Shown piece by piece: positions 2,638 through 50,782 of a stretch of 64,000 nt of DNA (within the stretch, counting starts at the first letter, position 1; each line of letters begins with the position of its first letter). The position numbers and the translations under genes are program-made. The notes beneath the pieces were generated by a model. That model was not told the DNA's origin and made no database searches. It saw nothing but the letters and a program-made list of their open reading frames with translations. Where the stretch lies: positions 14,320 to 78,319 of IMG/VR virus record IMGVR_UViG_3300023179_000074; one strand, given 5' to 3'. This stretch comes from a virus.

Positions 2638-5289
2638 TTATCTGCTTGTTAATCTTATTGCGTTTAGATATGCATTAGATCCAGTGCAAAGAGAGGCAAG
2701 AATAGTAAGCCTACCACTATCTCTTGGAACTAAGTTATTAATTCTAAACACATTGTAATTATTTGCACTTAGCGAAGGTATACCTGATCCGGGTCCGGAA
2801 GTTTGAACACCGTAAGAACTTGTACCAGAATTATAACTTACTACATATTCAGTTTCACTTAAAAGAGCCGCAGAAGCTGATCCAAAAATACTTAGATCAT
2901 ATATTTTATTTGTATTTAGGTTGTAGAATTCTAATTCAAAATACGAATTTCCATAAATGTAATCTTCAGTTGCCGATTCTATGGCTAAGTTTCCTAAGTA
3001 AGCAGGGCTAGGGAATAATAGCCCTGGGTTAGTCGGGGCCCCGTCAGCACCTGTATAGTTACTAGCGCTTAAACCAAAGCCAGTTGATGTATTAGTTGTA
3101 TCAACAAGATTATTTACATCATTTACTAGTTCAGTTATATTGTTCCAATACTTCGAATTTGAATCAATCGTAGTTTGATCAGTGCTTAATCCTAAATCTA
3201 CTAAAATTTCAATAGGTACTCTGGTTTGCGTTACTGTAGGTGTTGGTGTTTGCGTCGGTGTTTCGGAAATTGTAGGTGTTACAGTCACAGTTGTAGATGG
3301 TGTTAGCGTTATGCTAGGGGTAATTGTAATTGTGGGTGTCGGTGTCATGGATGTAGTAGGAGTAATAGAAGGTGTTTGGGTTACCGTAGGTGTAAGTGTT
3401 TCTGTTGGTGTTACAGATATTGTAGGTGTGGGGGAGAAAGTCGGGGTTATAGATGGTGTTGGCGAATTAGATGTTGTTATTGTTGGTGTCACGGTTGGGG
3501 TTACAGAAGGTGTAGGGGTAACAGGAGCAAAGTTATAAATCGCTCCGTCAGCGAATACATTAAAATAAACTGTACCAGTATCCGTGGGTGAGAAACCAAA
3601 AGTAGTTCCATCTCTTGTATAGTCGTAAACAACATACATATAAATAACATTTTGATATTTTAACACCATTGTGGATTCAGATGTAACGGTGGAAGGACCT
3701 GCGTTAAAATATAAAGTTGATGTGTTATCTGGAGCGCTAATAAAGATTTCCTGGCCTTCTTGTGTTTTATTACCCGGGCCGGATAACTTATATAAGAAAG
3801 GAGTAATAGTTATTGTAGGTGTTACTGTTATCGTTGGTGTTATGGATGGTGTAATAGATATCGTTGGTGTTATGGAAGGTGTAATCGATATCGTTGGTGT
3901 TATGGAAGGTGTTATAGTTACTGTTGGTGTTTGAGAGACAGTAGGAGTAACTGTTAGAGTTACAGTCGGGGTAACTGTAGGTGTTTCTGTAACAGTAACT
4001 GTAGGAGTTATTGTTGGAGTAATAGAAGTAGTGGGCGTTATAGTGGGTGTAATGCTAGAAGTGGGTGTAACCGTTGGAGTTAATGTAGGTGTAGAAGAGA
4101 TGGTAATTGAAGGTGTTATAGAAATTGTCGGTGTCGGTGTTGGCGAAATAGGTATTATAGGCGTTTCGGTAATAGTAGGTGTTATAGAAATTGTCGGTGT
4201 CGGTGTAAGTGAAGTAGTAGGTGTAATTGACGGAGTAATAGATATAGTAGGTGTTATCGTAGGTGTAATAGAAATTGTTGGAGTAATAGAAGTTGTTGGA
4301 GTAATAGTAGGCGTTATTGAAGGGGTTATCGTTGGCGTTGTTGTTGTAGTAGGTGTAATAGAAATAGTAGGCGTAATCGAGGGGGTGATAGATATGGAAG
4401 GTGTTATTGTAGGGGTTACCGTTGGCGTTGTTGTTGTGGTAGGTGTAACTGCAGATGTATTCGTAACAGTTGGGGTAGCAGTTGCAGTTTTTGTGATAGT
4501 AGGTGTTTGGGTTCTAGTAGGTGTAATAGAAATTGTCGGTGTTATGGTAGGTGTAATAGTTACAGTGCATGTTGGTGTAAGGGTAACGGTTGGTGTAATG
4601 GTAGGAGTGGGAGTTAAAATAAAAGAATTTACATTTAAATTTTTAACGTAAAGATTAGTAGGGTATGGGCCGTTTGCAAAACCTAAACAGGGAAATACAG
4701 TAGGTGGTAATCTATAGGGTAATTTAAAATTTACATAATTTGTAAAGCTAGATCCATCATTATGATCTATAATAATACGATCGCCAATATCAGTTATACG
4801 AACTCTAAATACTGTATAATCACTACTAGCAATATTTGTATAAAGAGTTAATGGTTTTTTAAACGATGTAGATGTTAAGTTTTCTGATCTATAGAGTAAG
4901 TCATAGTTTCTATCTTCACTACTACGAATAGATATTGTATTAGGCAGTGGGGTGGAAAATCCGTTTAATTGCAAAATATCAGAACCAAAATTACCGGTTA
5001 TGTCAAAGCCTATACCCAATGCACCTTTTTTAATTCCATTAAAAAAAGTTAAAGCGGATGAGGAAAGAGCTGTTAAGCTAGTATAGGCTAACCCCGGGCC
5101 CGGCGAACCACCCGATAAATAATCTATACTAGCGTCTACAAAAAATAAGCAGAATCCTTCTGAGCCGCTTAGTTGTGTGCCGATACATTTATATTCGAAA
5201 GAAATAATACAATCACGCGTAGTGTCAAGCGTATCGAGCCTGTATAAAACAGATGTATCGTTATCATGATTTAAATTATAAAAAGCCAT
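2638..5289 (-). CDS. Putative virion fibre/adhesin: N-terminal L-type lectin-like domain, two long Pro/Thr/Ser mucin-like tracts, C-terminal beta-sandwich domain
   Basis: GSEGFCLFF...GLAY...LGIGFD..GNF legume-lectin-like motifs and more than 350 aa of TP repeats; start refined to MAFYNL (ATG 5289), just after the upstream stop at 5291. Confidence 0.65.
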   Translation of the reverse strand: MAFYNLNHDNDTSVLYRLDTLDTTRDCIISFEYKCIGTQLSGSEGFCLFFVDASIDYLSGGSPGPGLAYTSLTALSSSALTFFNGIKKGALGIGFDITGNFGSDILQLNGFSTPLPNTISIRSSEDRNYDLLYRSENLTSTSFKKPLTLYTNIASSDYTVFRVRITDIGDRIIIDHNDGSSFTNYVNFKLPYRLPPTVFPCLGFANGPYPTNLYVKNLNVNSFILTPTPTITPTVTLTPTCTVTITPTITPTISITPTRTQTPTITKTATATPTVTNTSAVTPTTTTTPTVTPTITPSISITPSITPTISITPTTTTTPTITPSITPTITPTTSITPTISITPTITPTISITPSITPTTSLTPTPTISITPTITETPIIPISPTPTPTISITPSITISSTPTLTPTVTPTSSITPTITPTTSITPTITPTVTVTETPTVTPTVTLTVTPTVSQTPTVTITPSITPTISITPSITPTISITPSITPTITVTPTITITPFLYKLSGPGNKTQEGQEIFISAPDNTSTLYFNAGPSTVTSESTMVLKYQNVIYMYVVYDYTRDGTTFGFSPTDTGTVYFNVFADGAIYNFAPVTPTPSVTPTVTPTITTSNSPTPSITPTFSPTPTISVTPTETLTPTVTQTPSITPTTSMTPTPTITITPSITLTPSTTVTVTPTISETPTQTPTPTVTQTRVPIEILVDLGLSTDQTTIDSNSKYWNNITELVNDVNNLVDTTNTSTGFGLSASNYTGADGAPTNPGLLFPSPAYLGNLAIESATEDYIYGNSYFELEFYNLNTNKIYDLSIFGSASAALLSETEYVVSYNSGTSSYGVQTSGPGSGIPSLSANNYNVFRINNLVPRDSGRLTILASLCTGSNAYLNAIRLTSR
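3190..4615 (-). repeat. Low-complexity (T/S/I/V)-T-P coding repeats, including three near-identical 30-bp units at 3831-3920 (ISITPSITPT)
   Basis: Directly visible: tcgttggtgttatgga(t/a)ggtgt(a/t)at repeated three times. Confidence 0.9.
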
Positions 5290-11900: not shown

Positions 11901-13759
11901 TAATACTCCTTAGTTAGTGATGTTATAGAAGGCGTAATTATTCTTATCTTATTTGCAAAATCAAGAGAATTATTAAGAAATGGGTATTTAAAGTAAGGCA
12001 GTTGATAATCTTGTGTTGTTACAGTTATATCTTTTTCGGGATATACGGGATTATAAACTACTAAACAAACTCCTGGGATTGTAATTGTTGTATCACCTTC
12101 AATTCTTTTAGTATTAATATCAATAATTCCGGATTCAGGAATTGCTAAAATTTGATTGGTAATTTCGGTAATATTTATTACAGATCCTAAATTGTCTCTT
12201 AGAGTAGAAAAATAATTTCTAAAAATTTTCGTAATTTGATCTTTTAATGCTTCTGGGTTTCTTTTAGAAGTAATGTCACGTGAGATTTCTAGAAAACTGT
12301 TGTCTGAAATACTGGGTGATAAAGGCTCTCCAGGAAAATTAGTACCTATATCTACAGCTACATAGACGGGATCATTAACTATAATTTCAGAAGTGGTTAC
12401 TTTTACTTTTTGCAAGTCATTTAATATAAGTTGTTTTTGCGCGGAGTTTAAATAGCTACCTCTGGTTGTGAGTGATGTGAGTTTTTCGAGCTTAGGTACA
12501 GCATACAAATATATATTATTAAAATTACAAGAGTCAGCAAATTTTACTTGATTAAAAAGAACTCTACTTTCGAGATTAGGCCTAGAAACACCCAAATCAA
12601 AGTAATATTTTAAATGACCTGAAATATAATCCCAATTATTTACCGCTTTAACAGACGAAATAATATTACTGTAGTTTTTACTTACATAATTTATAAAATC
12701 TTCAGCGGTTATAAGCCTATATTGACTTCTAAATGTATTGGATGCATTGTTTTTTATGTTCGATACGGATTCTCTAGGTATATAAGTTGTACTCGCATCT
12801 ATATTACTAAACTCTATATTATTAACTTGCTGTGTAGTAATAATATTAAGATTTTCTGGTGTTGTATCGGTTCGAATGGTATTAAATCTTGTTGTGTTAT
12901 AGAAAAACATTTTATTATTGTTTAGTAACCCGGGACCTACTTCACCGATAACACCATTGGTCTTTAAATAATATATTGCAACTTCATCACCGGGATTTAA
13001 CTGCTTTCCAGTTACGTTATTACCAAATCTTATTTCATATCTCTCATTTTCGTTTAATCTAATTTCATAAACTTCAGAGTTACTTCTTTCTAAAAATAAA
13101 GACTGGACAGGCGACCATTTAGACCACTTAGGACTATCAACCGTATTATCTTTTACGTAAACATCTATATTAAAATGATCAATAGGTACGTTTTGGCCTG
13201 TAGCGTCAACCACAGTAAGGGTTAATGTTTCGAAAGGCTCACCTACTCCAACATAAATAGGATATTCTGAATATATACCTTGATATAATAGATTATTATC
13301 TTGAAGATCGGTTAAAATTTCAGTATCACTAGAATTTTTTATAAACGTAACGTCTTTATTAAAGCTATAATTTGTACCGTTTATAGAAAAATATGAATAT
13401 CTCGGAATCGTATATGTGTTAGGTGGTAGAGAAGCATTAGCTTGTGCTAAAAAAGAAAGTATAGCAGTTTGATTGCCTACGGGATTATAATTTAAAATTT
13501 TTACTATTTTGTTTACGTTTTCAAATAATTCAGCAGTAGTAAAGGTGCTTTCAGAACCAGTTCTATTAAGATAAAATAAGAGAACATGATATGCATAAGC
13601 AATAATATCTATTAAGGAAGAAAGATTACTACCTTCAAAGTTTTGATCAGTAAAAAAATTATTAGAGTTTAATCGAGTAATTATTAGACTCTTTAAGCTT
13701 TGTGCATCAAACGCAACATAGCTATCTTTCTCTAAAGTAAAATCGTTAAATTCAGCCAT
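11900..13759 (-). CDS. Baseplate wedge subunit, T4 gp6-like
   Basis: FTDQNFEGSNLSSLIDIIAY, YEIRFGNNVTGK and QYRLITAEDF motifs; adjacent to gp25. Confidence 0.85.
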   Translation of the reverse strand: MAEFNDFTLEKDSYVAFDAQSLKSLIITRLNSNNFFTDQNFEGSNLSSLIDIIAYAYHVLLFYLNRTGSESTFTTAELFENVNKIVKILNYNPVGNQTAILSFLAQANASLPPNTYTIPRYSYFSINGTNYSFNKDVTFIKNSSDTEILTDLQDNNLLYQGIYSEYPIYVGVGEPFETLTLTVVDATGQNVPIDHFNIDVYVKDNTVDSPKWSKWSPVQSLFLERSNSEVYEIRLNENERYEIRFGNNVTGKQLNPGDEVAIYYLKTNGVIGEVGPGLLNNNKMFFYNTTRFNTIRTDTTPENLNIITTQQVNNIEFSNIDASTTYIPRESVSNIKNNASNTFRSQYRLITAEDFINYVSKNYSNIISSVKAVNNWDYISGHLKYYFDLGVSRPNLESRVLFNQVKFADSCNFNNIYLYAVPKLEKLTSLTTRGSYLNSAQKQLILNDLQKVKVTTSEIIVNDPVYVAVDIGTNFPGEPLSPSISDNSFLEISRDITSKRNPEALKDQITKIFRNYFSTLRDNLGSVINITEITNQILAIPESGIIDINTKRIEGDTTITIPGVCLVVYNPVYPEKDITVTTQDYQLPYFKYPFLNNSLDFANKIRIITPSITSLTKEY

Positions 13760-23929: not shown

Positions 23930-24682
23930 TTAAATTGAAAAAAATGATCCGTCTACTTCCAGGTTTTGCCCGTTAATTTGTGTAAACTTGCTTTCTATAT
24001 CTCTATACTGTTTAATAAATTCTAAAATGTTGTTAGTCAAGGTTGAAGGGAACTTTTCTATAACTTTTATTTGTTCAGGTACAGCGGTAGAAGAAAATTC
24101 TAATGAAAGAGGTTTTTCGCCTTCAAAAGAAACAGATTTTATAAACTTAGATATCTCTTGAACGAACAATTCACCAATAATATTCTTAAAATCTTTATCT
24201 TCTGTTTGTTTTAGATTATCTAAACTAAATTGACTTAATTTTAAATCAACATCAAGACGAGGTGCTTGAAGAATGACCTTTAAATTATTAAGTTCAATTA
24301 CTTTTTCTGTATTAAACTCAGTAGAAATGTTAGGGTATTCTTTTACTTTATCAAATAAATTAATTTTATTTTCATTTAAAGTATAGTTAGCATCTAAGCA
24401 GTGTGCTCTTAAAGCAATAGCTATTGCTGTTCTATCAAAAGTATAAAGATCATTTATCTTTATATCGTCGAGTATATTTTCTTTTAAAATACTGTAGAAA
24501 TTAATAATAAATGATAATTTAGTTAAAGTTTCATCAATAGAAGTTTTTAATAAATTTTTTTGTTGTCTTAATGTAATATTTTTAATTTTGACTTCTTTTT
24601 TTAAGGAAGGAACAAAAACAGAAATTGAGTTTGTTTTATTTAGTTCTTCCAATTGTCGTAACAGTTCTGCAGAATTACTCAT
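23930..24682 (-). CDS. Baseplate hub assembly protein (gp26-like)
   Basis: VFVPSLKKEVKIKNITLRQQKNLL...TFDR..IAIALR. Confidence 0.55.
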   Translation of the reverse strand: MSNSAELLRQLEELNKTNSISVFVPSLKKEVKIKNITLRQQKNLLKTSIDETLTKLSFIINFYSILKENILDDIKINDLYTFDRTAIAIALRAHCLDANYTLNENKINLFDKVKEYPNISTEFNTEKVIELNNLKVILQAPRLDVDLKLSQFSLDNLKQTEDKDFKNIIGELFVQEISKFIKSVSFEGEKPLSLEFSSTAVPEQIKVIEKFPSTLTNNILEFIKQYRDIESKFTQINGQNLEVDGSFFSI

Positions 24683-25544
24683 TATGGGTATTTAGGTTAG
24701 AAGAAGGGAGATTCAAGTTATTACCTTTTTGTTGTTTATTTTTATCTTCTATATCTTTCTTAAAGATATTCATAAAAACATTTAATTCAGCAGGCGTGGA
24801 ATTATAAAGTAAGTCATAAGTTAAATTTGCTTTTGAAATAAAAAAATATTCAAATTCGTATAGTGATAATAAATCTCTTTTAAATAGAATTTTTAAAAAT
24901 TCAATAATAGTATTATCTTTTAAAGAAAGAGGCAGTTCTATTTTTTCACTATCACCAAAACTTATTTGAATTAAAAATATTTTAGATAAATTTTCATGTA
25001 TTTTGTCAAAAAAGTCTTTTGCATATTTTAAAGTAGTGGTAGGAAGTATTTCTAAAATTTTCATATCATCGACTTGATAGGTGTTATTATCTACTGTCAC
25101 ATTTTGAATAGTAGAAAGATATTGTTCTTCCAGTGTATTTAAAAAGAGTTTAGAAGTTAAAGAAAAATTAATTTTTACGTTTTCAATAGTTTGTATTTCA
25201 TTAATTTCTGTATCAAAATTTTGAAGTTTTTCTAAAAGTTTAGTAAGATCTATAGAAATTAATTGCTGTTTTTTATTTTTATCTTGAATATTAAATTCTA
25301 GTACCGGGCTAATGCAGATTATTCTTAACACTAGTAAAATAATTAATTTTTCTAAGAAATTAAAATTATTAAAATTGTTATTCGAATGAGTAGCAATTAG
25401 ATTATCTAAAAACTCGCAAATATCGAGATTATTGTTATTAAGAATAGTTTTTGCTAAATTTTTATATGTTTTGTATTTTATTTCTCTAAAATTAAAATAT
25501 TCTTTTCTGTTTTTTAAAAAAACTTTTATATTAAAGTCTTCCAC
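24675..25544 (-). CDS. Baseplate hub assembly protein (gp26/gp51-like)
   Basis: Similar N-terminal pattern to the neighbour and a gp51-like C-terminal TPAELNVF; synteny. Confidence 0.4.
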   Translation of the reverse strand: MEDFNIKVFLKNRKEYFNFREIKYKTYKNLAKTILNNNNLDICEFLDNLIATHSNNNFNNFNFLEKLIILLVLRIICISPVLEFNIQDKNKKQQLISIDLTKLLEKLQNFDTEINEIQTIENVKINFSLTSKLFLNTLEEQYLSTIQNVTVDNNTYQVDDMKILEILPTTTLKYAKDFFDKIHENLSKIFLIQISFGDSEKIELPLSLKDNTIIEFLKILFKRDLLSLYEFEYFFISKANLTYDLLYNSTPAELNVFMNIFKKDIEDKNKQQKGNNLNLPSSNLNTHNE

Positions 25545-25564: not shown

Positions 25565-26473
25565 TTATAAAAATCCAAGTGGATTTATACTACCAATACC
25601 ATTTTGAAAGCTTGTAATTCTAGGTATTTCTCCGTTTGAAATTCTATTAACTATATCAGCAATAGGAAGATATAAGTTATTTTCAACCGTATAATTTGAG
25701 TATGTCCATCTAGTAGAATAAGTTGTAAGTTTATCATCTGTATAATCTAAGTTTTGTTCAGAAACTTGAAAGGGCACACAGTTGTAAAAATTAAAAACCT
25801 TTCGAGGAATCATAGATATACTATGATATGTTCTTGTATATTCCAATAAAGTCATATTAACTTTCATATTTTTAAACCCTCTTCTTCCCCTTACGTCATC
25901 GGGACGTGCTGTCATACCGTAATGCGATGCTAAAATAACCCATGGTCTTATTACAAAATCAATAAAAGAAGTATTTGTTTCTCTAAAATCAATTACCAGA
26001 TTAGGTGGTTCTGTGGATCTACCGCTACCTAAAATACCGGGTAAAAATCCTCTATTATTATTTACGGATACTGATGTCACATCATATTGTTCAGTGGGAA
26101 CAGTTATTTGATGTGCAAATAGACATCCTATCACACGCTGAAGGGGGTAACTATTAAGTATTGTAACAGCGCTATTTATATCATATCCTTTTTTAGCACC
26201 GTCTGTTCTTTCTAATCCTTGAATAACACTAGTTCTTAAAGCTGCAGGGTAATTATCAATTACAATAATCCATTGTGAGGAGTTAGGAATCGAGGTAAAC
26301 CACGATTCCATTTGAAACAGAAAATAATCTCTTACACTAACTATTGGAACACCGGGTATATTAAACCCAAAAAGATTAGTTACTTGGGGGGCAAATAAAG
26401 GATTAGTGCCTGTAGCTAGCCCTGTGAAATTATTACCTAAAGCATTTAATGCATTAGTAAATGGATTGTTCAC
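25565..26473 (-). CDS. Tail tube-like protein (gp54/gp19 fold)
   Basis: LVIDFRETN..FIDFVIRPW...FNFYNCVP; follows gp19. Confidence 0.55.
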   Translation of the reverse strand: MNNPFTNALNALGNNFTGLATGTNPLFAPQVTNLFGFNIPGVPIVSVRDYFLFQMESWFTSIPNSSQWIIVIDNYPAALRTSVIQGLERTDGAKKGYDINSAVTILNSYPLQRVIGCLFAHQITVPTEQYDVTSVSVNNNRGFLPGILGSGRSTEPPNLVIDFRETNTSFIDFVIRPWVILASHYGMTARPDDVRGRRGFKNMKVNMTLLEYTRTYHSISMIPRKVFNFYNCVPFQVSEQNLDYTDDKLTTYSTRWTYSNYTVENNLYLPIADIVNRISNGEIPRITSFQNGIGSINPLGFL

Positions 26474-35171: not shown

Positions 35172-35199
35172 ATTATAAAGGAAATATATTATTTTGCAA
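35172..35199 (-). promoter_or_regulatory. Sigma70-type promoter of the 33778-35165 operon
   Basis: TTGCAA-N16-TATAAT-N6-ATG. Confidence 0.75.
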
Positions 35200-35560
35200 C
35201 CTTTTTATTAGTTGTATATATAATAGACTTTAATATTTTGTTTATTATTTCCAATCTTTTTAAAATAGAAATAATTTTAATTTTTGCATCTTTATTTTTC
35301 TGTATAATAGGGTTTTTTAAGGACTGTTTAAACAATTGAATGGAATTACCCGTTTTTATATAAAGATCGCCAAGCTGCTCTATTGTACTGGGTATAGGGT
35401 AAGGCAATACTTTGTCAGCTCTTACATCGTTAGGATTCTGATATACTGTTTTATTAAATAAATCTTTAAGTGTAACTCTTTGGGTTGCAAGTTCTCTTGA
35501 AGCGACTCCAGATGTCCATTTGTTATATTGTAAAATTTCTTCAAACAGCAATTTCTTCAC
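35189..35560 (-). CDS. Late hypothetical protein
   Basis: TATAAATA-N5-GTG. Confidence 0.55.
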   Translation of the reverse strand: MKKLLFEEILQYNKWTSGVASRELATQRVTLKDLFNKTVYQNPNDVRADKVLPYPIPSTIEQLGDLYIKTGNSIQLFKQSLKNPIIQKNKDAKIKIISILKRLEIINKILKSIIYTTNKKVAK

Positions 35561-41119: not shown

Positions 41120-41780
41120 CTATTTTTTTAGATATTTTTTGCAACCCTAATGTAACGAGGTTTAATGCTCGTTTAGAATTTAAAAACTTTGTCTTAAAGA
41201 CAAAAAAATTATTATAAAAATCTTCTCCTATAATAAATTTTAAGACTTCCGAATCTTTAGATTTTATGATAGAATCTATTCCGCTAAATCCAAATAAAAT
41301 ATAAACAGAAATTTTTCTATCTCTTAAATGTAAAATAAAAGAATATTCATTATTTGTCCTGTGGTTTAAATATTGATTAATCTGTATATTATATTTTTTG
41401 CAAAAGTTATATATAAAAACGATTGACTCTTTTATAAACTTTATTTGTTCGGGGTTATCAGGGTCTGTCATAGCTAATTGCTTTTGAGTCAAGGTATAAG
41501 CTTTAGTTGCTTTTAAAGAAGTATAAAATTCGAGAGGAAAAAATGTCTCGTCTTTGTATAATCGGTAGGGAGCAGAAAAAAAATCTTCTATTTTTATATT
41601 AGGAAATCTTTTAAAAAAAGAAGATAAGCGCTTAAGAGAAACAAAAATATTTTCATCTAGCTTAGTGAAATCTTTTCTTAATTTAAAAGGTGTATTTTTT
41701 GCGCTTCTAGTTACTTTTAAAAACGAATTATAAATGTGTTTGTCAAATTCAGTTATCACTACTTTTAATAAAACTTCCAT
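41109..41780 (-). CDS. Hypothetical protein, possibly helicase loader gp59-like
   Basis: Size and position upstream of gp32 as in T4; probable true start GTG 41759. Confidence 0.35.
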   Translation of the reverse strand: MEVLLKVVITEFDKHIYNSFLKVTRSAKNTPFKLRKDFTKLDENIFVSLKRLSSFFKRFPNIKIEDFFSAPYRLYKDETFFPLEFYTSLKATKAYTLTQKQLAMTDPDNPEQIKFIKESIVFIYNFCKKYNIQINQYLNHRTNNEYSFILHLRDRKISVYILFGFSGIDSIIKSKDSEVLKFIIGEDFYNNFFVFKTKFLNSKRALNLVTLGLQKISKKIVER

Positions 41781-41977
41781 TTATTTCTAGTTACTTCTTT
41801 TTTAAATTTTTTAAACGCGCTAGGCTTTAAATACCGTCTCTTAAGTCTAACTTCATCTAAAATACCAGATTTAAGAACTTCAGAGCTAAATTTTCTGTAA
41901 GCCTTATCAAAATAAGTCTTATCAGTACTTTTCTTTTTGTCAAGATTAACCACGACATTAGTTGTATAATTTCTCAA
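41765..41977 (-). CDS. rpsU: Ribosomal protein bS21 homologue
   Basis: FDKAYRKFSSEVLKSGILDEVRLKRRYLKPSAFKKFKK matches the bS21 pattern (ALRRFK..v.k.Gil.e.r.r..YeKPS); 70 aa, basic. Confidence 0.8.
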   Translation of the reverse strand: MRNYTTNVVVNLDKKKSTDKTYFDKAYRKFSSEVLKSGILDEVRLKRRYLKPSAFKKFKKEVTRNKWKFY

Positions 41978-43647: not shown

Positions 43648-44313
43648 CTATAAGTTAGAGTAATTTCTAATAAATTTTTCTTGGCTTTGTAAAAAAGTCT
43701 TGTCATTTAAATTTAAGAGACCTGGTGATTTATGAATTACATGTATAGGATACACTCCAAGCTTTAACTTTTTAAAATTAGCATCAATAGAGCTAGCAAT
43801 ATCATAATGATGAAAAGTGTAGTCCTCGTTGAACTCCCAACCGCTATTAACAATAGCTTTTGTTGAAACGCTTAAAAATAATCCGTCTAAAATAGTTACA
43901 CGGCTAGGCGTAAGCCCAAAATTTGTAACAAAATATTGTTCGGTGTTTGCATAGTGTGCAACAAACCCCCTTAAGTTAGGACCGAACCCACCGCACATTA
44001 AATGCCATAATGCTGGTTCTTTAACAACAGGGTTAATACCACCTGCAAGACCAACAATATCATATAACCTATGGGCGGTAACTAACTTTTCACAAATATT
44101 ATAATCATCTACAAATACATCATCATGTAAAAAAATAATATAATCAAAATTATTAGAATTTTTATTTAAAAATTCATTGTATTTTTTACTAAGACCCTCT
44201 TTATTATTGCAAGAATAAAAAATTTTACCCGGGCTTATCTTACTTAAAGATTTAAATGCAAGAGTATTGTCTGGCTTATTTTCTTTAGTACAAAAGTAAA
44301 AAGCAAATTTCAT
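43648..44313 (-). CDS. GT2-like (GT-A fold) glycosyltransferase
   Basis: IIFLHDDV, ILDGLFL, FHHYDI, HKSPG. Confidence 0.7.
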   Translation of the reverse strand: MKFAFYFCTKENKPDNTLAFKSLSKISPGKIFYSCNNKEGLSKKYNEFLNKNSNNFDYIIFLHDDVFVDDYNICEKLVTAHRLYDIVGLAGGINPVVKEPALWHLMCGGFGPNLRGFVAHYANTEQYFVTNFGLTPSRVTILDGLFLSVSTKAIVNSGWEFNEDYTFHHYDIASSIDANFKKLKLGVYPIHVIHKSPGLLNLNDKTFLQSQEKFIRNYSNL

Positions 44314-44990
44314 TAAAAAAACGGTGAGTTGGTTTTAAACTTACCTACAGATGTAATGCCTTCAGGCGTTAAGTAATACAGAAGTCCTTCCTCTAAAGGA
44401 ACAAAATCCTGTTCTTTTAGTGAAGAAAATTCATTGTTTAGGAAATCTGCATAAATTGTACTTCCACTTCTTGCAATATATACATGTGCATTTTTTTGAT
44501 TATAAATCCATAGCCCAAATGTACCTTCAAGTAAAGATAGCGCTTTACATATACCGAGTATTTCATCACCGTGTTCTTTAACGGAATTAAAAATTAGTGG
44601 TGGTATCACAGATGAATCTACAGTATTAAATGACTTTTTATCTGTTATTGTTTTCTTTAAAATTTTATCATTTGTAAGTACCCCGTTGTGTGCTATAATC
44701 CAATTTTTATATTGAAATGGATGTGTTGTGTTAGGGGAAAACTCTCTTTTTGATGACGTTGGGGCTTGTGTATGGCCTAAAAAATAATTAAAATCTGTAA
44801 TACTTTTTTTACTTTTTCCATATTCTATAATAAGTTTTTTGGAGAGCTTTACTACATTTGGGCTTTTTAAAATAGCATGTACTTTGGTGTTAATTAGTAA
44901 TCCCCCGTAAGAAAACGTACCTCTTTTCTTATTACTATCATAAAGCTTTACGTATCTTGTAAAGTCTTTAGCGCCAAATATTCCGCAAAT
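44313..44990 (-). CDS. Class II (Ntn) glutamine amidotransferase, 225 aa, with non-canonical ATT start
   Basis: Open frame (M)CGIFGA...KRGTFSYG...GHTQAPT...HPF...AHNGVL...VDSSVIP...LEGTFG; no in-frame ATG/GTG/TTG between the Cys codon and the upstream stop; AAGGAGG 8 nt before ATT. Confidence 0.85.
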   Translation of the reverse strand: MCGIFGAKDFTRYVKLYDSNKKRGTFSYGGLLINTKVHAILKSPNVVKLSKKLIIEYGKSKKSITDFNYFLGHTQAPTSSKREFSPNTTHPFQYKNWIIAHNGVLTNDKILKKTITDKKSFNTVDSSVIPPLIFNSVKEHGDEILGICKALSLLEGTFGLWIYNQKNAHVYIARSGSTIYADFLNNEFSSLKEQDFVPLEEGLLYYLTPEGITSVGKFKTNSPFF

Positions 44991-44998
44991 ATTATAAA

Positions 44999-45037
44999 CC
45001 TCCTTAATTATTATATTACAAAGAATAAATAATTCAA
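44999..45037 (-). promoter_or_regulatory. Sigma70-type promoter (TTGAAT-N16-TATAAT) plus perfect Shine-Dalgarno AAGGAGG
   Basis: -35 at 45032-45037, -10 at 45010-45015, SD at 44999-45005. Confidence 0.75.
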
Positions 45038-45038
45038 G

Positions 45039-45923
45039 ATGAATAAGGATACAAAGCTTATATTCGAGGCTTATTTAAATAAAAAAATTGTCACGGAAGC
45101 TCCTATCTATGCTGATGATTTAGGGTTAACAGGAGATATTGAGAAGTCCCCAGGTAAGGGCTATGGAATTGGCAAAGTAGCTGCTAAAACAGGCAAGTCG
45201 ATGACAGAAGTCGCTAATAATTTATTAAAAGTAATACAAACTAAACTTTTTAAGCCTGAACCGCATACTGTAGATGGAAAAGAGTATTCTTTATATTACC
45301 CTGGGTCAAAATTAAAGTTTAGAGCAGAATTAGAAAATTTAATTAAGAATGAGCTTAAATTAGGTACTACAGAGGCAAGATATACGGCTAGAGTTGTTGA
45401 TAATTTATTGAACGTAACGCGTGTAGATGCAGATGGCGGTACAGCCGCGACACCCGTTGATGTTAAAAAAGCTGTGGTTGCGGGGGTACAAGGTAAAGCT
45501 ATTACTCCGGGTTCAGAAGCCCCGGTAGCAGCGCCCGCTAATAATGTATTTGTAAAAAATCCTAACGTTAGGTTTATTAAGGAATGGATGCCTATTTTTG
45601 TTGAGCTTCCTGATGAAATAACGTATACGGGTTCTGATTTTTACGATTCTAAAGAATTGCGTAATGAGGTTGTAGAAGCTATAACTCGTGCATTTGATGA
45701 GAATGCGGCTAAAGACAAAGAAATGATTCAGGATTTTATTGATTCATTGAAATTTAAAAATAGCTACACACCGGCTAGTGAGAAAAAAGAAGGTGAAGGT
45801 ACTGGTGAAGAACCTACGATTGAAGAATACCCAGAAGAAGATGAGCCTACATCAATAGCTCGTGAATTAGGATATAAGGGGGGAAGAAGTTTTGACGAAT
45901 TTGATAAATACAGTACTATTTAA
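45039..45923 (+). CDS. Late hypothetical protein, possibly an internal head protein
   Basis: TAAATA-N7-ATG; N-terminus MNKDTKLIFEAY...VTEA; acidic C-terminus. Confidence 0.55.
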   Translation: MNKDTKLIFEAYLNKKIVTEAPIYADDLGLTGDIEKSPGKGYGIGKVAAKTGKSMTEVANNLLKVIQTKLFKPEPHTVDGKEYSLYYPGSKLKFRAELENLIKNELKLGTTEARYTARVVDNLLNVTRVDADGGTAATPVDVKKAVVAGVQGKAITPGSEAPVAAPANNVFVKNPNVRFIKEWMPIFVELPDEITYTGSDFYDSKELRNEVVEAITRAFDENAAKDKEMIQDFIDSLKFKNSYTPASEKKEGEGTGEEPTIEEYPEEDEPTSIARELGYKGGRSFDEFDKYSTI

Positions 45924-46660
45924 TTAATTAGTTTGCAGTTGTATTTTTCCCAAGGTATTGCAATTCTATAAGGCAATGGGTCTATAAAACCGGCATCTAT
46001 GAAGCCTTTTATCCTCAAAGAGCATGCAGTACATTCACCACAAGCGATTTCTTCTCCCTCATAACAAGTCCAGGTCTGGCTAAAATTAACCCCGAGCTTT
46101 ACCCCGAGTTTAATGATTTCCGCTTTAGATTTATCAATTAACGGTGCTTGAACTGTAATTCTGTTTCTTCTGTTAAGCGATGACACTTTATTAATTTGCT
46201 CTAAAAATTCATCACTTCCATCCCAAAAGCCTGCAACGCTATCAGCTTGCGCGGCTCCATGAAAAACAGTGCTAGCTCCGTAGTTTTCTGCTATTGCGAG
46301 GGAAATACTAAGCAGCATTAGGTTCCTATATGGAACGTAGTTAACCGTCTGCGGATCACCCATCACATCTTTAGCCTTAGCAACTGCAACCTTGTTATTA
46401 AGGAGTGAAGAAACCTGACAAATATCTCTAAAAAAAGGTAATTTTAAGTGTAAACTATCAACCGGCATATCAAGCGATTCAATTTGAAATGAAGCGCAAT
46501 TTATTTCTTTATCACGATGCTTCTGCCCGTAATCATAATTAACTGAAATTATTTTATCATACCTACTTGCAGCTAAGTGTAACAGTACAGAGCTATCCAT
46601 TCCCCCAGAGATGGGGACTACTACTTTACTCGACGGGCTCTTCTTCAGTTTGCGCTTCAT
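45920..46660 (-). CDS. queC: 7-cyano-7-deazaguanine synthase QueC
   Basis: SGGMDSS PP-loop, DYGQKH, YVPYRN, TWTCY...CGECTACSLR zinc site. Confidence 0.9.
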   Translation of the reverse strand: MKRKLKKSPSSKVVVPISGGMDSSVLLHLAASRYDKIISVNYDYGQKHRDKEINCASFQIESLDMPVDSLHLKLPFFRDICQVSSLLNNKVAVAKAKDVMGDPQTVNYVPYRNLMLLSISLAIAENYGASTVFHGAAQADSVAGFWDGSDEFLEQINKVSSLNRRNRITVQAPLIDKSKAEIIKLGVKLGVNFSQTWTCYEGEEIACGECTACSLRIKGFIDAGFIDPLPYRIAIPWEKYNCKLIN

Positions 46661-47747
46661 TTGCGTTATATTTGTATTCCTCTGCTAAGCGCTTGTCGAG
46701 TTCCGGAATAATAAATTCCTCGTAAAAAGCGGGGTCTTTTGCAAAGGTCTTTGCATAACCCAGTTTATCACCTTTCTTATACTTACCACTAGTAACACCA
46801 ACAGTATAGGTAGCTCCGTTTTGCTCAATAATACCTCTTGCAGCTGCCATACCAAGAAGACCACTATACTTGTTAAGACCGGTTTTAAAGGAAAGATACA
46901 TTTCAGTCTCTAAAAACGGTGGGAGAAAGCGGTTCTTTACAGTCAATGCGCGAAGAGTTGTACCGCTATACTTATTTGCTTCAGCGAGCTTTTTATCCTC
47001 AACATCCATAGAATCGCCTTCGCCTTCCTTTTCATGGCGCTTAGCAAGCTGTACAAGAATACTCGCCATATATACAGGTCCAGAGCCTCCAGCTTGGTTT
47101 TTTACTAGACTCGGGAACATTGCAGCCGGGTCATCATAGGTGTGGTTAGTAAAAAGAATTGTTACTCCTGCTTTAGCAGCTTTAAACGTGAGAGTACGAA
47201 ACATACTCTTTAAAGATTTAGCACGTAAACCCATATCTGCGGCAGATTTATCCTTAGCAACGTCATCAAGCTCTTTTTGCGAGGCAAGATTACCCAAACT
47301 ATCAATACTTAAAATAAATTTACCTTTAGCGTTATTTTCAATAATACTATCTAATAAAGCACTAATTTGATTGCGACACTGATCTATAGTATCAACTGGT
47401 ACATATTTTACTGTTTCCGGGTCCAACCCAACGCCTTTAGTGCTATTTTCATCAATGGCAATTTCAGTATCAAATATAACAGGTGTAAGTCCCTTCTTCT
47501 GAGCTGTAGCTAAAATTTTATTAACTATAAATGTTTTACCGGTCTGACTAGGTCCAGAAAAACCTATTATTCTCCCTTTAGGAACGCCACCATTGCGGCA
47601 ACTCCCACCGAGTATAGCGTTAAGAGCGTAGCATCCAGTATCAAACCACTCATCAACTTTACTAAGTGCATTTTCTTTTAAAAAAGTAGCTTCAGAATTT
47701 AATTTATCTAAAGACGCAAATATCTTATTAAGATCTTTATTACTCAT
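46626..47747 (-). CDS. uvsX: RecA-like recombinase UvsX
   Basis: DTGCYALNAILGG, GPSQTGKT, FDTE, IDSLGNL, KNRF. Confidence 0.9.
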   Translation of the reverse strand: MSNKDLNKIFASLDKLNSEATFLKENALSKVDEWFDTGCYALNAILGGSCRNGGVPKGRIIGFSGPSQTGKTFIVNKILATAQKKGLTPVIFDTEIAIDENSTKGVGLDPETVKYVPVDTIDQCRNQISALLDSIIENNAKGKFILSIDSLGNLASQKELDDVAKDKSAADMGLRAKSLKSMFRTLTFKAAKAGVTILFTNHTYDDPAAMFPSLVKNQAGGSGPVYMASILVQLAKRHEKEGEGDSMDVEDKKLAEANKYSGTTLRALTVKNRFLPPFLETEMYLSFKTGLNKYSGLLGMAAARGIIEQNGATYTVGVTSGKYKKGDKLGYAKTFAKDPAFYEEFIIPELDKRLAEEYKYNANEAQTEEEPVE

Positions 47748-48193: not shown

Positions 48194-50782
48194 TTAAACA
48201 CTTAATAATTCAAATAGATCTGTCTGTACTTGAGATCCAGGTGATTGTAGCTTCCAATTTACTGCTTCGTAAAATCTGTCAATAACAGAAAAAATAATTT
48301 TTTCAAACATTAATTCATGATCGATTTCAAACGTATCGTTAAATTCTTTAGGAAAATTATATTTGTAGCCGATGGTTGAGATTCCATACTTATTAGGTTG
48401 TCTTGTATAAAAAAATCGCACTTTGTCACCGGAAGATATTTTTTCATACTTTTTACCAGTATTAAATCTATCTAGTAAAAGATTGTAAAAATATGCTGCT
48501 TTAACGTGTATAGGCATGTGTTTTGCAGTTTTAAATGAATCACATTGAGATGCATATTTTTCATATCCTTTAACACCCATAACAAAAGCAATATCTTCTA
48601 TAGGGAGGGTTTTAAATAAATCATATGTCTCGTTAAAAACCTTATTTGTTTCTGAGAGATCGCGTGTTAATAACATCGTCTCAATAATTTTCTTTACATA
48701 TGGCTTAATAGGCGCTGGCATTGTTGTTCTCACAACTTCAACACCAGTATATTTAAATTTATTGCAAGGTATGCCTTCCTCATCAAGTACGTGTAGAACG
48801 TATCTTTTTTTCTGTAAAAAAATGCCTGAATCAGAAATTGCTTCTCTCTTAAAATTTAATCTACAATCTTTTGAACCTAGTGCTTGTTTTCCCCAGATAA
48901 CAATATTTTCATTTAAAAAGTCCTCAATATCCTGTACAAGCTTATAATATTCAGCTGTTATTTTACCCTTCTTATCAAGCATAGAAATATTATTGCTTTT
49001 AACTATGTGTCTGAGCGAAATGTACGAGCTATCTGTATCATTATAAATAATAGGAGTATCATTAATGATTTCTTCCTTTGTGAGGTTAGAGTGTTTGCTT
49101 ACATATTCTTCTAGGAGTCTATTTGATTCTTTAATTACAGCTTGACCGGTTAAAGTAATTGATTCAGCGAGTTCATCATCGCCAAGAGGACTATGCTTGT
49201 TGCCAAAATACCCATAAATCGTATTAATAAGAATCTTAATGGTATGTTGTGTGATATTAAGGTTATCAATCTCATGCTTAAGTAAAGCATATTCTTTATC
49301 TTCTTTAGAAATATTAACAGCTTTTCTCTTTAGAGAAGATAATCTCTTTTTAATTTCAACACGTTTTTTATAATAGTAATCTACAGTAATTGGAATGATT
49401 CCTTTTTCTTTTTGAGTAAAAAGCACCTTTGCCTTAGATATGGCAATTTCTTCTTTCTTGATAAACTCAACAAAATTTTTAAGAGATAAAGTAAACGTTT
49501 GCCCGTTAACGTGTTTAATTGTTACGTCTTTATCAGTCTTATCAACTATAGAACCTATCTTTGTCTCCGGAGATAAATTAAGAGTTATCATTACATTTGG
49601 ATATAGACTATTAGCATCAAAAGAAACGATATACTCTTGAAACCCTCGCTTGGGCTCCCCTACATATGCACCAGCATTTTGCTGATCGTTAGAATTTGTT
49701 CCTTTATTAAAAGTGGGAATTCTTTGATTGCGAGAGCGCGCCTTGATAGCACATAATCCAGTAATCACAGAAAGAGACCCCAAAGCACCTTCAAAAGTAG
49801 TAAGCCCCGCATAAGCTATCATACGTAAAAGCTGTAAGTATTGTAGCTTAGTTTCCAATCTTACAAGTAAATTAACGTCTTGTACGTTGTAATCAACAAA
49901 AAGCTCCCAATTATCATCAGCTAAGCTAGAAAGATTTGTATCGCCGTAATCAATTTTATTCTCTTTTAATTCTATTTCACCAATAGTGTCGAGCTTGTAT
50001 GATTCTCTTAATACCGGGCAAAAGCGCTTATAGATGTCGAGATAGTCGACACACGACACGCCTTCAATATGCCAATGTACTTGTTCCCTGCCAAACTTAC
50101 CTGTAAAAACAATAGGTCTTATGTAATTGACGGGAGAAAGTTTTTTTGTTTCTTCTTCACCTAATATTTTTGTAATTCTATTAATGATGTAAGGTACATC
50201 AAAAAATTCACTATTCCATCCGGACAAAATATCAGGATAATCGGAAGAAAAATAACTAATAAATTTAGATAATAAATCCTTTTCTGACTTACAATACAAA
50301 TAAGTATGGTTTTCATTTTTTTTATGATAAGGTTTTAATCCCCAGGTGATAAAATGTTTTCTAATAGAATCGTAAACTGTAATAATATTAATAGGGTGTT
50401 CAGGATTATCAGGCTTAGGAAAATCAACAGGGCTATAAGTTTCAATATCAATAAACAAAACCTTTAATTCGTGTTTACTAAATTCTTCTTTTTCGTTATC
50501 CTTCCAAAAGCTATCAATAAGAAACTGTTGCTGTATATTTAAATTTTCAAAAACCCTTGTAACTTTATTATCTTTTAAATATCTAGATCTTTCTCCTTGA
50601 TTACGAAATTTTTTCTTTTTTAGTTTAGTATTAAAAATACTCGTAGCGTCTGCATGATTATTAGTTTCAAGATATATGTAAGGTTCAAAAGTTGTGTCTA
50701 CACAAATACGGTTACCGCTTTCATCCCAAGTAAATAAGCGCATTAATTGATCTTTTGGAAGATAGGCAACGCTTCTATACAT
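48194..50782 (-). CDS. Family B DNA polymerase gp43
   Basis: DIET, GWNSEFFD, FDANSLYP, KILINTIYG, YNDTDS, KKRY. Confidence 0.97.
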   Translation of the reverse strand: MYRSVAYLPKDQLMRLFTWDESGNRICVDTTFEPYIYLETNNHADATSIFNTKLKKKKFRNQGERSRYLKDNKVTRVFENLNIQQQFLIDSFWKDNEKEEFSKHELKVLFIDIETYSPVDFPKPDNPEHPINIITVYDSIRKHFITWGLKPYHKKNENHTYLYCKSEKDLLSKFISYFSSDYPDILSGWNSEFFDVPYIINRITKILGEEETKKLSPVNYIRPIVFTGKFGREQVHWHIEGVSCVDYLDIYKRFCPVLRESYKLDTIGEIELKENKIDYGDTNLSSLADDNWELFVDYNVQDVNLLVRLETKLQYLQLLRMIAYAGLTTFEGALGSLSVITGLCAIKARSRNQRIPTFNKGTNSNDQQNAGAYVGEPKRGFQEYIVSFDANSLYPNVMITLNLSPETKIGSIVDKTDKDVTIKHVNGQTFTLSLKNFVEFIKKEEIAISKAKVLFTQKEKGIIPITVDYYYKKRVEIKKRLSSLKRKAVNISKEDKEYALLKHEIDNLNITQHTIKILINTIYGYFGNKHSPLGDDELAESITLTGQAVIKESNRLLEEYVSKHSNLTKEEIINDTPIIYNDTDSSYISLRHIVKSNNISMLDKKGKITAEYYKLVQDIEDFLNENIVIWGKQALGSKDCRLNFKREAISDSGIFLQKKRYVLHVLDEEGIPCNKFKYTGVEVVRTTMPAPIKPYVKKIIETMLLTRDLSETNKVFNETYDLFKTLPIEDIAFVMGVKGYEKYASQCDSFKTAKHMPIHVKAAYFYNLLLDRFNTGKKYEKISSGDKVRFFYTRQPNKYGISTIGYKYNFPKEFNDTFEIDHELMFEKIIFSVIDRFYEAVNWKLQSPGSQVQTDLFELLSV

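Follow-up and report, generated by a model that had tools for sequence, protein, structure and literature searches.

The question raised by this locus is why a phage gene whose product carries a catalytic N-terminal cysteine should begin at the codon ATT, directly before the Cys codon and behind a strong Shine-Dalgarno (SD) sequence, in a genome where gene starts of this kind are the exception. The gene is a coding sequence of 225 codons with the fold of a class II, or N-terminal nucleophile (Ntn), amidotransferase, and it is located at 44313-44990 on the minus strand of the stretch of DNA that was analysed (hereafter the window). The window comprises 64 kb (64,000 nt) of the 78-kb IMG/VR virus record IMGVR_UViG_3300023179_000074, which is rated 36% complete and belongs to an uncultured, T4-like freshwater phage with 31% G+C. 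Among the relatives of this gene two clean classes of start were found, ATT behind an SD sequence and leaderless ATG, and in several lineages the ATT start is physically tied to a homing endonuclease gene.

The original prediction, made by reading the sequence alone, had described a promoter, an SD sequence, ATT and TGC in this order, and every element was found in its place on the minus strand: TTGAAT (45037-45032), a 16-nt spacer, TATAAT (45015-45010), AATT, AAGGAGG (45005-44999), TTTATAAT, the ATT start codon (44990-44988) and the TGC codon of the catalytic Cys (44987-44985), which is residue 2 of a frame closed by the stop TAA at 44315-44313. The SD sequence lies 8 nt before ATT and is predicted to be unpaired, and its GGAGG starts 6 nt downstream of the -10-like TATAAT. 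The -35-like TTGAAT reaches 10/12 in a consensus scan and overlaps the late box of a divergent gene; this late-promoter-like TAAATA (45026-45031, plus strand) stands 7 nt before the ATG of the divergent gene at 45039, the intergenic space being 48 nt in total. Promoter hexamers alone occur 11 times in the window versus 13.3 expected by chance, and since such a scan is uninformative in AT-rich DNA, support for the promoter comes from its conservation, the block being kept in nearly all relatives. Folding of the leader gave no significant structure (z -1.04) and a search of 44800-45200 against Rfam returned one chance-level match only (expect value, E, 5.2), which together argue against control by a riboswitch or a hairpin.

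Of the 68 genes of the window, 20 have a TAAATA and 8 a TATAAT that ends 3-8 nt ahead of the start codon, with about 0.55 expected for each box, so that 28/68 genes carry one or the other at this distance versus about one expected. Boxes so near to start codons imply that most first genes must be leaderless. Examples of these close boxes are found at 35560/35583, 46626-47747 and 48194-50782, and some late genes (24675-25544, 25565-26473 and 35189-35560) show apparent leaderless GTG starts. AGGAGG is rarer than chance (9 found, 13.1 expected), and only the copy at 45004 precedes the start of a gene; the only other SD-like gene start in the window is the weaker AAGGAG-5-ATG at 11911. The claim that the strong SD sequence is an exception in a leaderless genome was therefore borne out.

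Concerning the reality of the ATT codon, the region 44200-45200 was identical in Logan contigs from four runs of four studies (freshwater, lake and pond samples, 2015-2019), and these contigs thus carry ATT exactly as in the record. We then collected 80 IMG/VR loci and 78 metagenome loci, which merged into a non-redundant set of 115 proteins. In all of these loci the codon before Cys was either ATT or ATG; after merging, ATT was found in 66/115 and ATG in 49/115, and 65 of the 66 ATT alleles have GGAGG 8-10 nt upstream. The clade of the window gene (branch support 97) consists of 45 members, all 45 with ATT, so that the close relatives with ATG which the original prediction had named as its possible refutation were not seen. 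Over the first 32 codons of the ATT clade the ratio of nonsynonymous to synonymous substitution (dN/dS) is about 0.16 with dS about 1.35, indicating purifying selection. Cys1 (TGC/TGT), Ile3 (ATA/ATT), Phe4 and Gly5 vary synonymously only, while the start ATT is invariant in 41/41 distinct sequences. A sequencing error or a dying pseudogene would account for the missing canonical start, and for nothing further; the identical sequence in four studies, the 66 relatives with ATT, the purifying selection and the invariance of the catalytic residues allow this explanation to be dismissed for practical purposes.

A different possibility is that translation begins upstream at some other codon and that a propeptide then cleaves itself off to free the Cys, as happens in PurF of Bacillus subtilis. 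The frame of the window gene is indeed open for 29 codons upstream, back to the TAA at 45077-45075, and it contains no ATG, GTG or TTG, as had been claimed from the sequence; canonical starts in this open stretch are almost nil among the relatives as well. Of 35 distinct upstream regions of ATT alleles, 17 have an in-frame stop 2-7 codons before ATT, and the spacer between GGAGG and ATT is 8, 9 or 10 nt long, with a freely varying sequence. In-frame stops and spacer lengths that differ by 1-2 nt, hence not by multiples of three, rule out an upstream start, and the upstream stretch is in fact occupied by the promoter and by the start of the divergent gene. The one relative that speaks for a propeptide is L211 (915-1003; labels of this type denote individual loci), the sole ATT allele without a good SD sequence: its SD is degraded, an in-frame ATG stands four codons upstream (ATG-GGT-AGT-ACT-ATT-TGC), and the start adjoins a 67%-identical copy of the endonuclease described below. 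L211 is either an allele in decay or a form with a short propeptide. For the family as a whole we regard the propeptide explanation as very improbable. The stops and spacer lengths of the relatives, together with the selection on the N-terminus, indicate that the N-terminal Cys ties the start to ATT, as had been proposed, and AUU is very probably the initiation codon, as judged from these comparisons. Formyl-methionine (fMet) would be put in at such an AUU and later removed, which would expose the catalytic Cys.

It had also been foreseen that gene callers would shorten the family. Among the 120 best database homologues, 49 are called from internal Met codons (giving 174-216 aa), and a further call runs upstream to a Leu codon; the family is N-truncated in automatic calls because gene callers do not try ATT, and annotation consequently strips these phage enzymes, as an entire family, of the catalytic N-terminus. 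The further suggestion that such genes are overlooked holds only in part, since the callers do miss the start, but gene 83 of phage phiEco32 (phi32_83, NC_010324) has already been annotated from ATT. Like the window gene, gene 83 encodes a class II amidotransferase beginning with ATT directly before Cys (ATT-TGT-GGC-ATC-GTA), with an SD-like AGGTGGA 7 nt upstream; unlike it, gene 83 encodes a 676-aa GlmS-like protein of two domains and belongs to an Escherichia coli podophage whose genome is not leaderless.

The protein itself is an intact member of the Ntn class, again as predicted. All six motifs (CGIFG, RG, GHT, HPF, HNG and DS) were found in the translation; the Pfam model GATase_6 was passed with 33.7 bits (cut-off 27), and GATase_7 remained just under its cut-off (24.7 versus 25). 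An AlphaFold model built with 41 sequences reached a predicted local distance difference test score (pLDDT) of 94.2 and a predicted template modelling score (pTM) of 0.92, with its first strand beginning at Cys. Searched with Foldseek, this model matched the glutaminase domains of GlmS (1xff, template modelling score 0.74/0.70) and PurF with E about 3e-11, and model and matches agree on the four-layer Ntn glutaminase fold. In the 41 aligned sequences of the family Cys1, Arg22-Gly23, His72, Asn101-Gly102 and Asp124 are invariant. In the alignment with GlmS, HNG falls on HNG and VDS on TDT, so that the oxyanion-hole Asn-Gly and the Asp that binds the amino group are present. Arg73 of GlmS binds the alpha-carboxylate of glutamine, and to our knowledge all classic class II amidotransferases have this carboxylate-binding Arg; here the position opposite Arg73 is held by Gln74 of the motif HTQAPT, nearly invariant in the family (the stretch LGHTQA, residues 70-75 counted from Cys1, lies at 44766-44783 on the minus strand). 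Since a conserved Gln replaces the carboxylate-binding Arg, free glutamine is uncertain as the substrate. Judged from the model, fold and nucleophile are certain and the use of free glutamine is not; the enzyme may act on a different substrate. In a collection of cultured phages neither the region (megablast) nor the protein (tblastn, E 1e-5) found a match.

When start codon and SD sequence were considered together, the 115 non-redundant relatives fell into ATT with SD (65), ATT without SD (1), ATG without SD (47) and ATG with a distant SD (2). The ATG alleles without SD, 47 of 49, have a -10 box 6-9 nt before ATG, which is the leaderless layout, and in the other two the SD sequence stands at a poor distance of 11-13 nt. 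In 24 of the 35 distinct ATT upstream regions GGAGG follows TAnAAT after 5-6 nt, exactly where ATG sits in leaderless genes, and for this reason the message is predicted to begin at or in the SD sequence, with a very short leader. The two designs are best compared in a near-isogenic pair, TATAATATTAATGAA-ATG-TGT (L219 and L213) versus TATAATATTAATGGAGGTACAATATT-ATT-TGC (L209 and L215), in which three changes separate the sequences, namely A>G at one position, an insertion of 11 nt and ATG>ATT, the flanks being otherwise almost identical. On the protein tree the state changes between ATT and ATG at least 10 times, and at least six of these changes are forced by well-supported branches. We know of no description, in the literature searched, of a strict alternation between leaderless AUG and SD plus AUU among orthologues, nor of an SD sequence at the predicted 5' end of a message. 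More than 100 natural alleles in two clean classes with almost nothing between them, near-isogenic pairs included, amount to a natural experiment on compensation between start codon, SD sequence and leader. In L209 and L215 an out-of-frame ATG overlaps the SD sequence (TTAATGGAGG), about 20 nt before ATT and 4 nt downstream of the -10 box; an upstream frame of 15 codons would begin there and run across the true start. The window lacks this ATG.

Part of the relatives offer a physical explanation for this pattern. In L061 and L075 a gene for a 244-aa GIY-YIG homing endonuclease lies directly upstream of ATT on the opposite strand, its ATG 44 nt from ATT. Its products match phrog_314, "homing endonuclease", with E 7e-34 and 1e-34, and matches to Pfam GIY-YIG and NUMOD1 are weak and below the cut-off. 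The endonuclease is present at this one site in 13 loci, all of them with ATT and none with ATG. The arm on the side of the amidotransferase gene (caggagaggagggtaacgct-ATT) recurs in three different clades of the protein, a sign of lateral spread. A series of decay could also be followed from L060 through L046 to L198: L046 keeps both ends of the cassette, its middle being deleted, and L198 keeps only an arm of about 45 nt, set directly behind a normal TTGAAT...TATAAT block. SD and ATT are kept in both. The cassette is bounded by the -10 box and by the Cys codon, as is the 11-nt insertion in the near-isogenic pair. From the remnants in L046 and L198 it appears that the cassette swaps exactly the stretch from the -10 box to Cys and that its decay leaves SD and ATT behind. 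Moreover, the metagenome Ga0208257 holds endonuclease-bearing ATT alleles alongside ATG alleles. These comparisons point to the SD plus ATT design as being partly a mobile cassette, and since the block is physically tied to the endonuclease in 13 relatives, its origin is non-regulatory in at least some lineages. The cassette would explain why an SD sequence is needed, because it leaves the gene no longer leaderless, and why SD plus ATT is specific to the amidotransferase gene. By itself it does not explain ATT.

The endonuclease resembles the free-standing GIY-YIG enzymes of T4-type phages (Seg family), in that a GIY-YIG and NUMOD1 gene lies between genes, is present or absent among close relatives, and moves together with its flanks. 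Unlike the Seg genes, the endonuclease of the relatives sits exactly at the start codon of its neighbour, and its arm carries the SD sequence and ATT of that neighbour. We know of no start design carried by a homing-endonuclease cassette in the literature searched, and a cassette of this type, carrying the translation signals of the gene beside its landing site, adds to what is known of mobile elements.

It is then tempting to see in SD plus ATT purely the footprint, or immunity mark, of the GIY-YIG endonuclease: the cassette would have moved the gene off its leaderless promoter and thereby created the need for an SD sequence, protection from cutting would come from the start-codon change G>T or from the insertion, and ATT would be kept because phages with the endonuclease still circulate, and not for the sake of expression. 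This account gains from the presence of the enzyme beside ATT starts only, from the occurrence of the same block in three clades, from the remnants that keep SD and ATT, from the boundaries shared with the 11-nt insertion, from the coexistence of both alleles in one metagenome and from the restriction of the feature to the amidotransferase gene. However, neither the endonuclease nor a remnant of it was found in the window or in its 45-member clade, where ATT and GGAGG are nevertheless invariant amid saturated synonymous sites. Single changes seldom stop a GIY-YIG enzyme, and the insertion by itself should already confer immunity, which leaves ATT unexplained; phiEco32 gene 83, finally, has ATT with no endonuclease annotated beside it. 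As the whole explanation we therefore hold the footprint to be rather doubtful. Equally doubtful is a stronger form of the same idea, in which the start codon would be set by a conflict with a selfish element: the endonuclease would target the leaderless ATG-Cys junction, and SD plus ATT, whether the endonuclease is present or not, would be an immune, anti-homing allele whose translational cost is paid by the strong SD sequence.

The original prediction had placed the reason for ATT elsewhere, namely in a dedicated sensor making the enzyme, together with the glycosyltransferase encoded downstream, responsive to the level of initiation factor 3 (IF3) or to the availability of the anti-SD sequence, perhaps through the phage ribosomal protein bS21. 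A broader form of this proposal is that SD plus AUU keeps the gene in the class of leaderless AUG messages, which depend on initiation factor 2 (IF2) and are antagonised by IF3. Leaderless translation needs both a 5' AUG and IF2, with IF3 acting against it; AUU, for its part, is a non-canonical triplet against which IF3 discriminates, starts at AUU being IF2-dependent and IF3-repressed (PMC4611024). Both designs thus share one factor logic, which fits the broader form. The sensor is further favoured by the fact that a single solution was seen, the strongest SD with AUU, and no range of solutions with weak SD or GTG; by bS21, encoded about 3 kb downstream of the amidotransferase gene (41765-41977, minus strand, after the helicase gene, with a TTG start and a match to Pfam Ribosomal_S21 at 41795-41911, E 1.4e-9); and by an initiator-like tRNA encoded in a relative. 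On the other hand, no IF3 gene was found in five phage records. The bS21 gene stands at a conserved site in the main ATT clade and also in its ATG sisters, and is absent from that site in other clades in both states (three of the four larger relatives encode bS21, not always at the same site). GGAGG-N7-10-ATT was no commoner than its reversed control in the five records, so that there is no SD plus ATT regulon, and the linkage with the endonuclease is a simpler origin. A dedicated sensor accordingly seems to us unlikely. In a weaker variant, SD plus AUU and leaderless AUG may be kept as equivalent, IF3-antagonised designs, and the set of natural alleles also offers a test of whether the two share their factor dependence in a host favouring leaderless messages.

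We prefer a composite explanation, to which we give a probability of roughly 60%. AUU would be translated 8 nt behind a strong SD sequence lying at or near the 5' end of a very short leader, and fMet would be inserted there and then removed to expose the catalytic Cys. Across a large group of uncultured freshwater T4-like phages, SD plus AUU would be one of two interchangeable 5' designs for the amidotransferase gene, the other being a -10 box, 6-9 nt and ATG; as a small cassette that can be transferred, it would take the place of whatever separates the -10 box from the Cys codon. In a number of lineages this cassette would be the arm of the divergent GIY-YIG endonuclease gene, whose decayed remnants leave SD and ATT; in the lineage of the window, with no endonuclease, GGAGG and ATT would be held by purifying selection. 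Because GGAGG and ATT are invariant among neighbouring silent sites that are saturated, selection appears to act against the one-step change to SD plus ATG. Two candidate reasons for this can be named, renewed sensitivity to the endonuclease and harm by over-production. The latter is favoured: with an AUG behind so strong an SD sequence, the enzyme and its coupled glycosyltransferase would be made in excess, and this is the most likely reason why ATT is kept. In line with the coupling, the downstream glycosyltransferase gene was found as predicted, and its start overlaps the amidotransferase stop, as TAATG in the window (44313) and as ATGA in 76/80 relatives; this overlap suggests that the two genes are probably translationally coupled. 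The model of the RegB-type nuclease matched neither the five phage records nor the 14 genomes used as controls, T4-type phages that would carry RegB being absent from these controls.

Several points weigh against this explanation. The association of SD with ATT is overwhelming in raw counts, but a test corrected for descent leaves six independent contrasts, in which SD changes in the same way in 3-4 and in the opposite way in none (p about 0.125), so that repeated co-evolution is likely but not proven. If the level of expression alone mattered, other solutions should have arisen as well, such as ATG or GTG behind a weak SD, and these are nearly absent. The efficiency of AUU and the use of SD sequences would depend on the host, and cultured phages do not reveal it, the DNA polymerase of this phage sharing only about 30% identity with its counterparts in them. 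The public runs containing the stretch were searched and none of them is listed as RNA. Finally, no homology could be demonstrated between the leader of the window clade and the leader on the endonuclease side, and deriving the window's ATT from an endonuclease is for this reason conjectural.

AUU starts served by an SD sequence are classic in infC, the gene of IF3, and in pcnB of E. coli. The window gene is similar in its AUU start, in the SD sequence that serves it and in the conservation of both among orthologues (66/115, and 45/45 in its own clade). It differs from infC because its product is not IF3 and no autoregulatory loop is present, and from both genes because it belongs to a phage with a leaderless genome, because its AUU alternates with leaderless AUG and because some of its orthologues are linked to an endonuclease. 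AUU is known to compete poorly with AUG (PMC5499595). In the Streptomyces gene sigR a GTC start is reported to be repressed by IF3 (PMC5472188); both genes thus have a non-canonical start, codon and organism being different, and for sigR the control is shown there experimentally.

Concerning the surroundings of the gene, the order UvsX, QueC, a variable divergent gene, amidotransferase, family 2 glycosyltransferase and DnaB-type helicase is kept in 88 loci. QueC, amidotransferase and glycosyltransferase form a conserved module among replication genes (43648-46660, between uvsX and the helicase gene). The glycosyltransferase (43648-44313, minus strand) matches Pfam Glyco_tranf_2_5 with E 3.9e-9, its ATG overlapping the amidotransferase stop. 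QueC (45920-46660, minus strand), of the 7-cyano-7-deazaguanine synthase family, matches Pfam QueC with E 8e-55 and reaches 158.6 bits with TIGR00364 (cut-off 150.3). Its synteny is kept, and in the most distant loci (L015 and L085-L088) QueC directly abuts the amidotransferase gene, while in the window the two are separate genes, 930 nt apart, with the divergent gene between them. The conserved neighbourhood makes QueC the probable partner of the amidotransferase, and FolE and QueD were found in four of four larger relatives, elsewhere in the genome.

The Gat-QueC proteins of phage 9g and archaea act in the synthesis of archaeosine and dG+ (PMC6884629). The present module is similar to Gat-QueC in combining a class II amidotransferase with a genuine QueC in a phage with genes of the preQ0 pathway, and differs from it because the two are separate genes, because Gln takes the place of the carboxylate-binding Arg, because no TGT or DpdA was found and because a glycosyltransferase is coupled downstream. 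The Pfam TGT model matched nothing in the record from which the window comes, nor in four relatives (60-88% complete); divergent forms of DpdA may escape it. Concerning a fused amidotransferase-QueC, no longer homologue was found, which is weak evidence, and there was no match to the profile of the fused family. From the gene content, a 7-deazaguanine-type pathway akin to the Gat-QueC route, in which the enzyme would work with the neighbouring QueC, is probably the best functional guess, and the conserved module of three genes may represent an undescribed pathway of base modification, pointing to 7-deazaguanine-type chemistry still to be characterised.

The divergent gene (45039-45923, plus strand) encodes 294 aa, gave no match in Pfam, PHROG or NCBIfam, and is present in 57 of 88 loci; it is variable and stands outside the module. 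Together with its late box it is mobile within the locus, being upstream of the amidotransferase gene in most loci, absent in many, and placed between amidotransferase and glycosyltransferase in L085-L087 (around 3360-4530).

No tRNA genes were found in the window, none in its record, and among the tRNAs of the relatives no anticodon matches AUU in the initiator frame. Record G003, which contains L073, has 22 tRNA genes at 15-49 kb, mostly in one cluster at 19-23 kb. The initiator-like tRNA mentioned above, a tRNA(CAT) not found in the 78-kb record of the window, lies at 1500-1576 of L094 (record G002). Its positions 1:72 are unpaired (U-U), and its anticodon stem has A29-U41, C30-G40 and G31-C39, so that two of the three hallmark G-C pairs are left; it closely resembles tRNA-fMet, and an initiator tRNA carried by a phage is worth closer study where the genome is leaderless.

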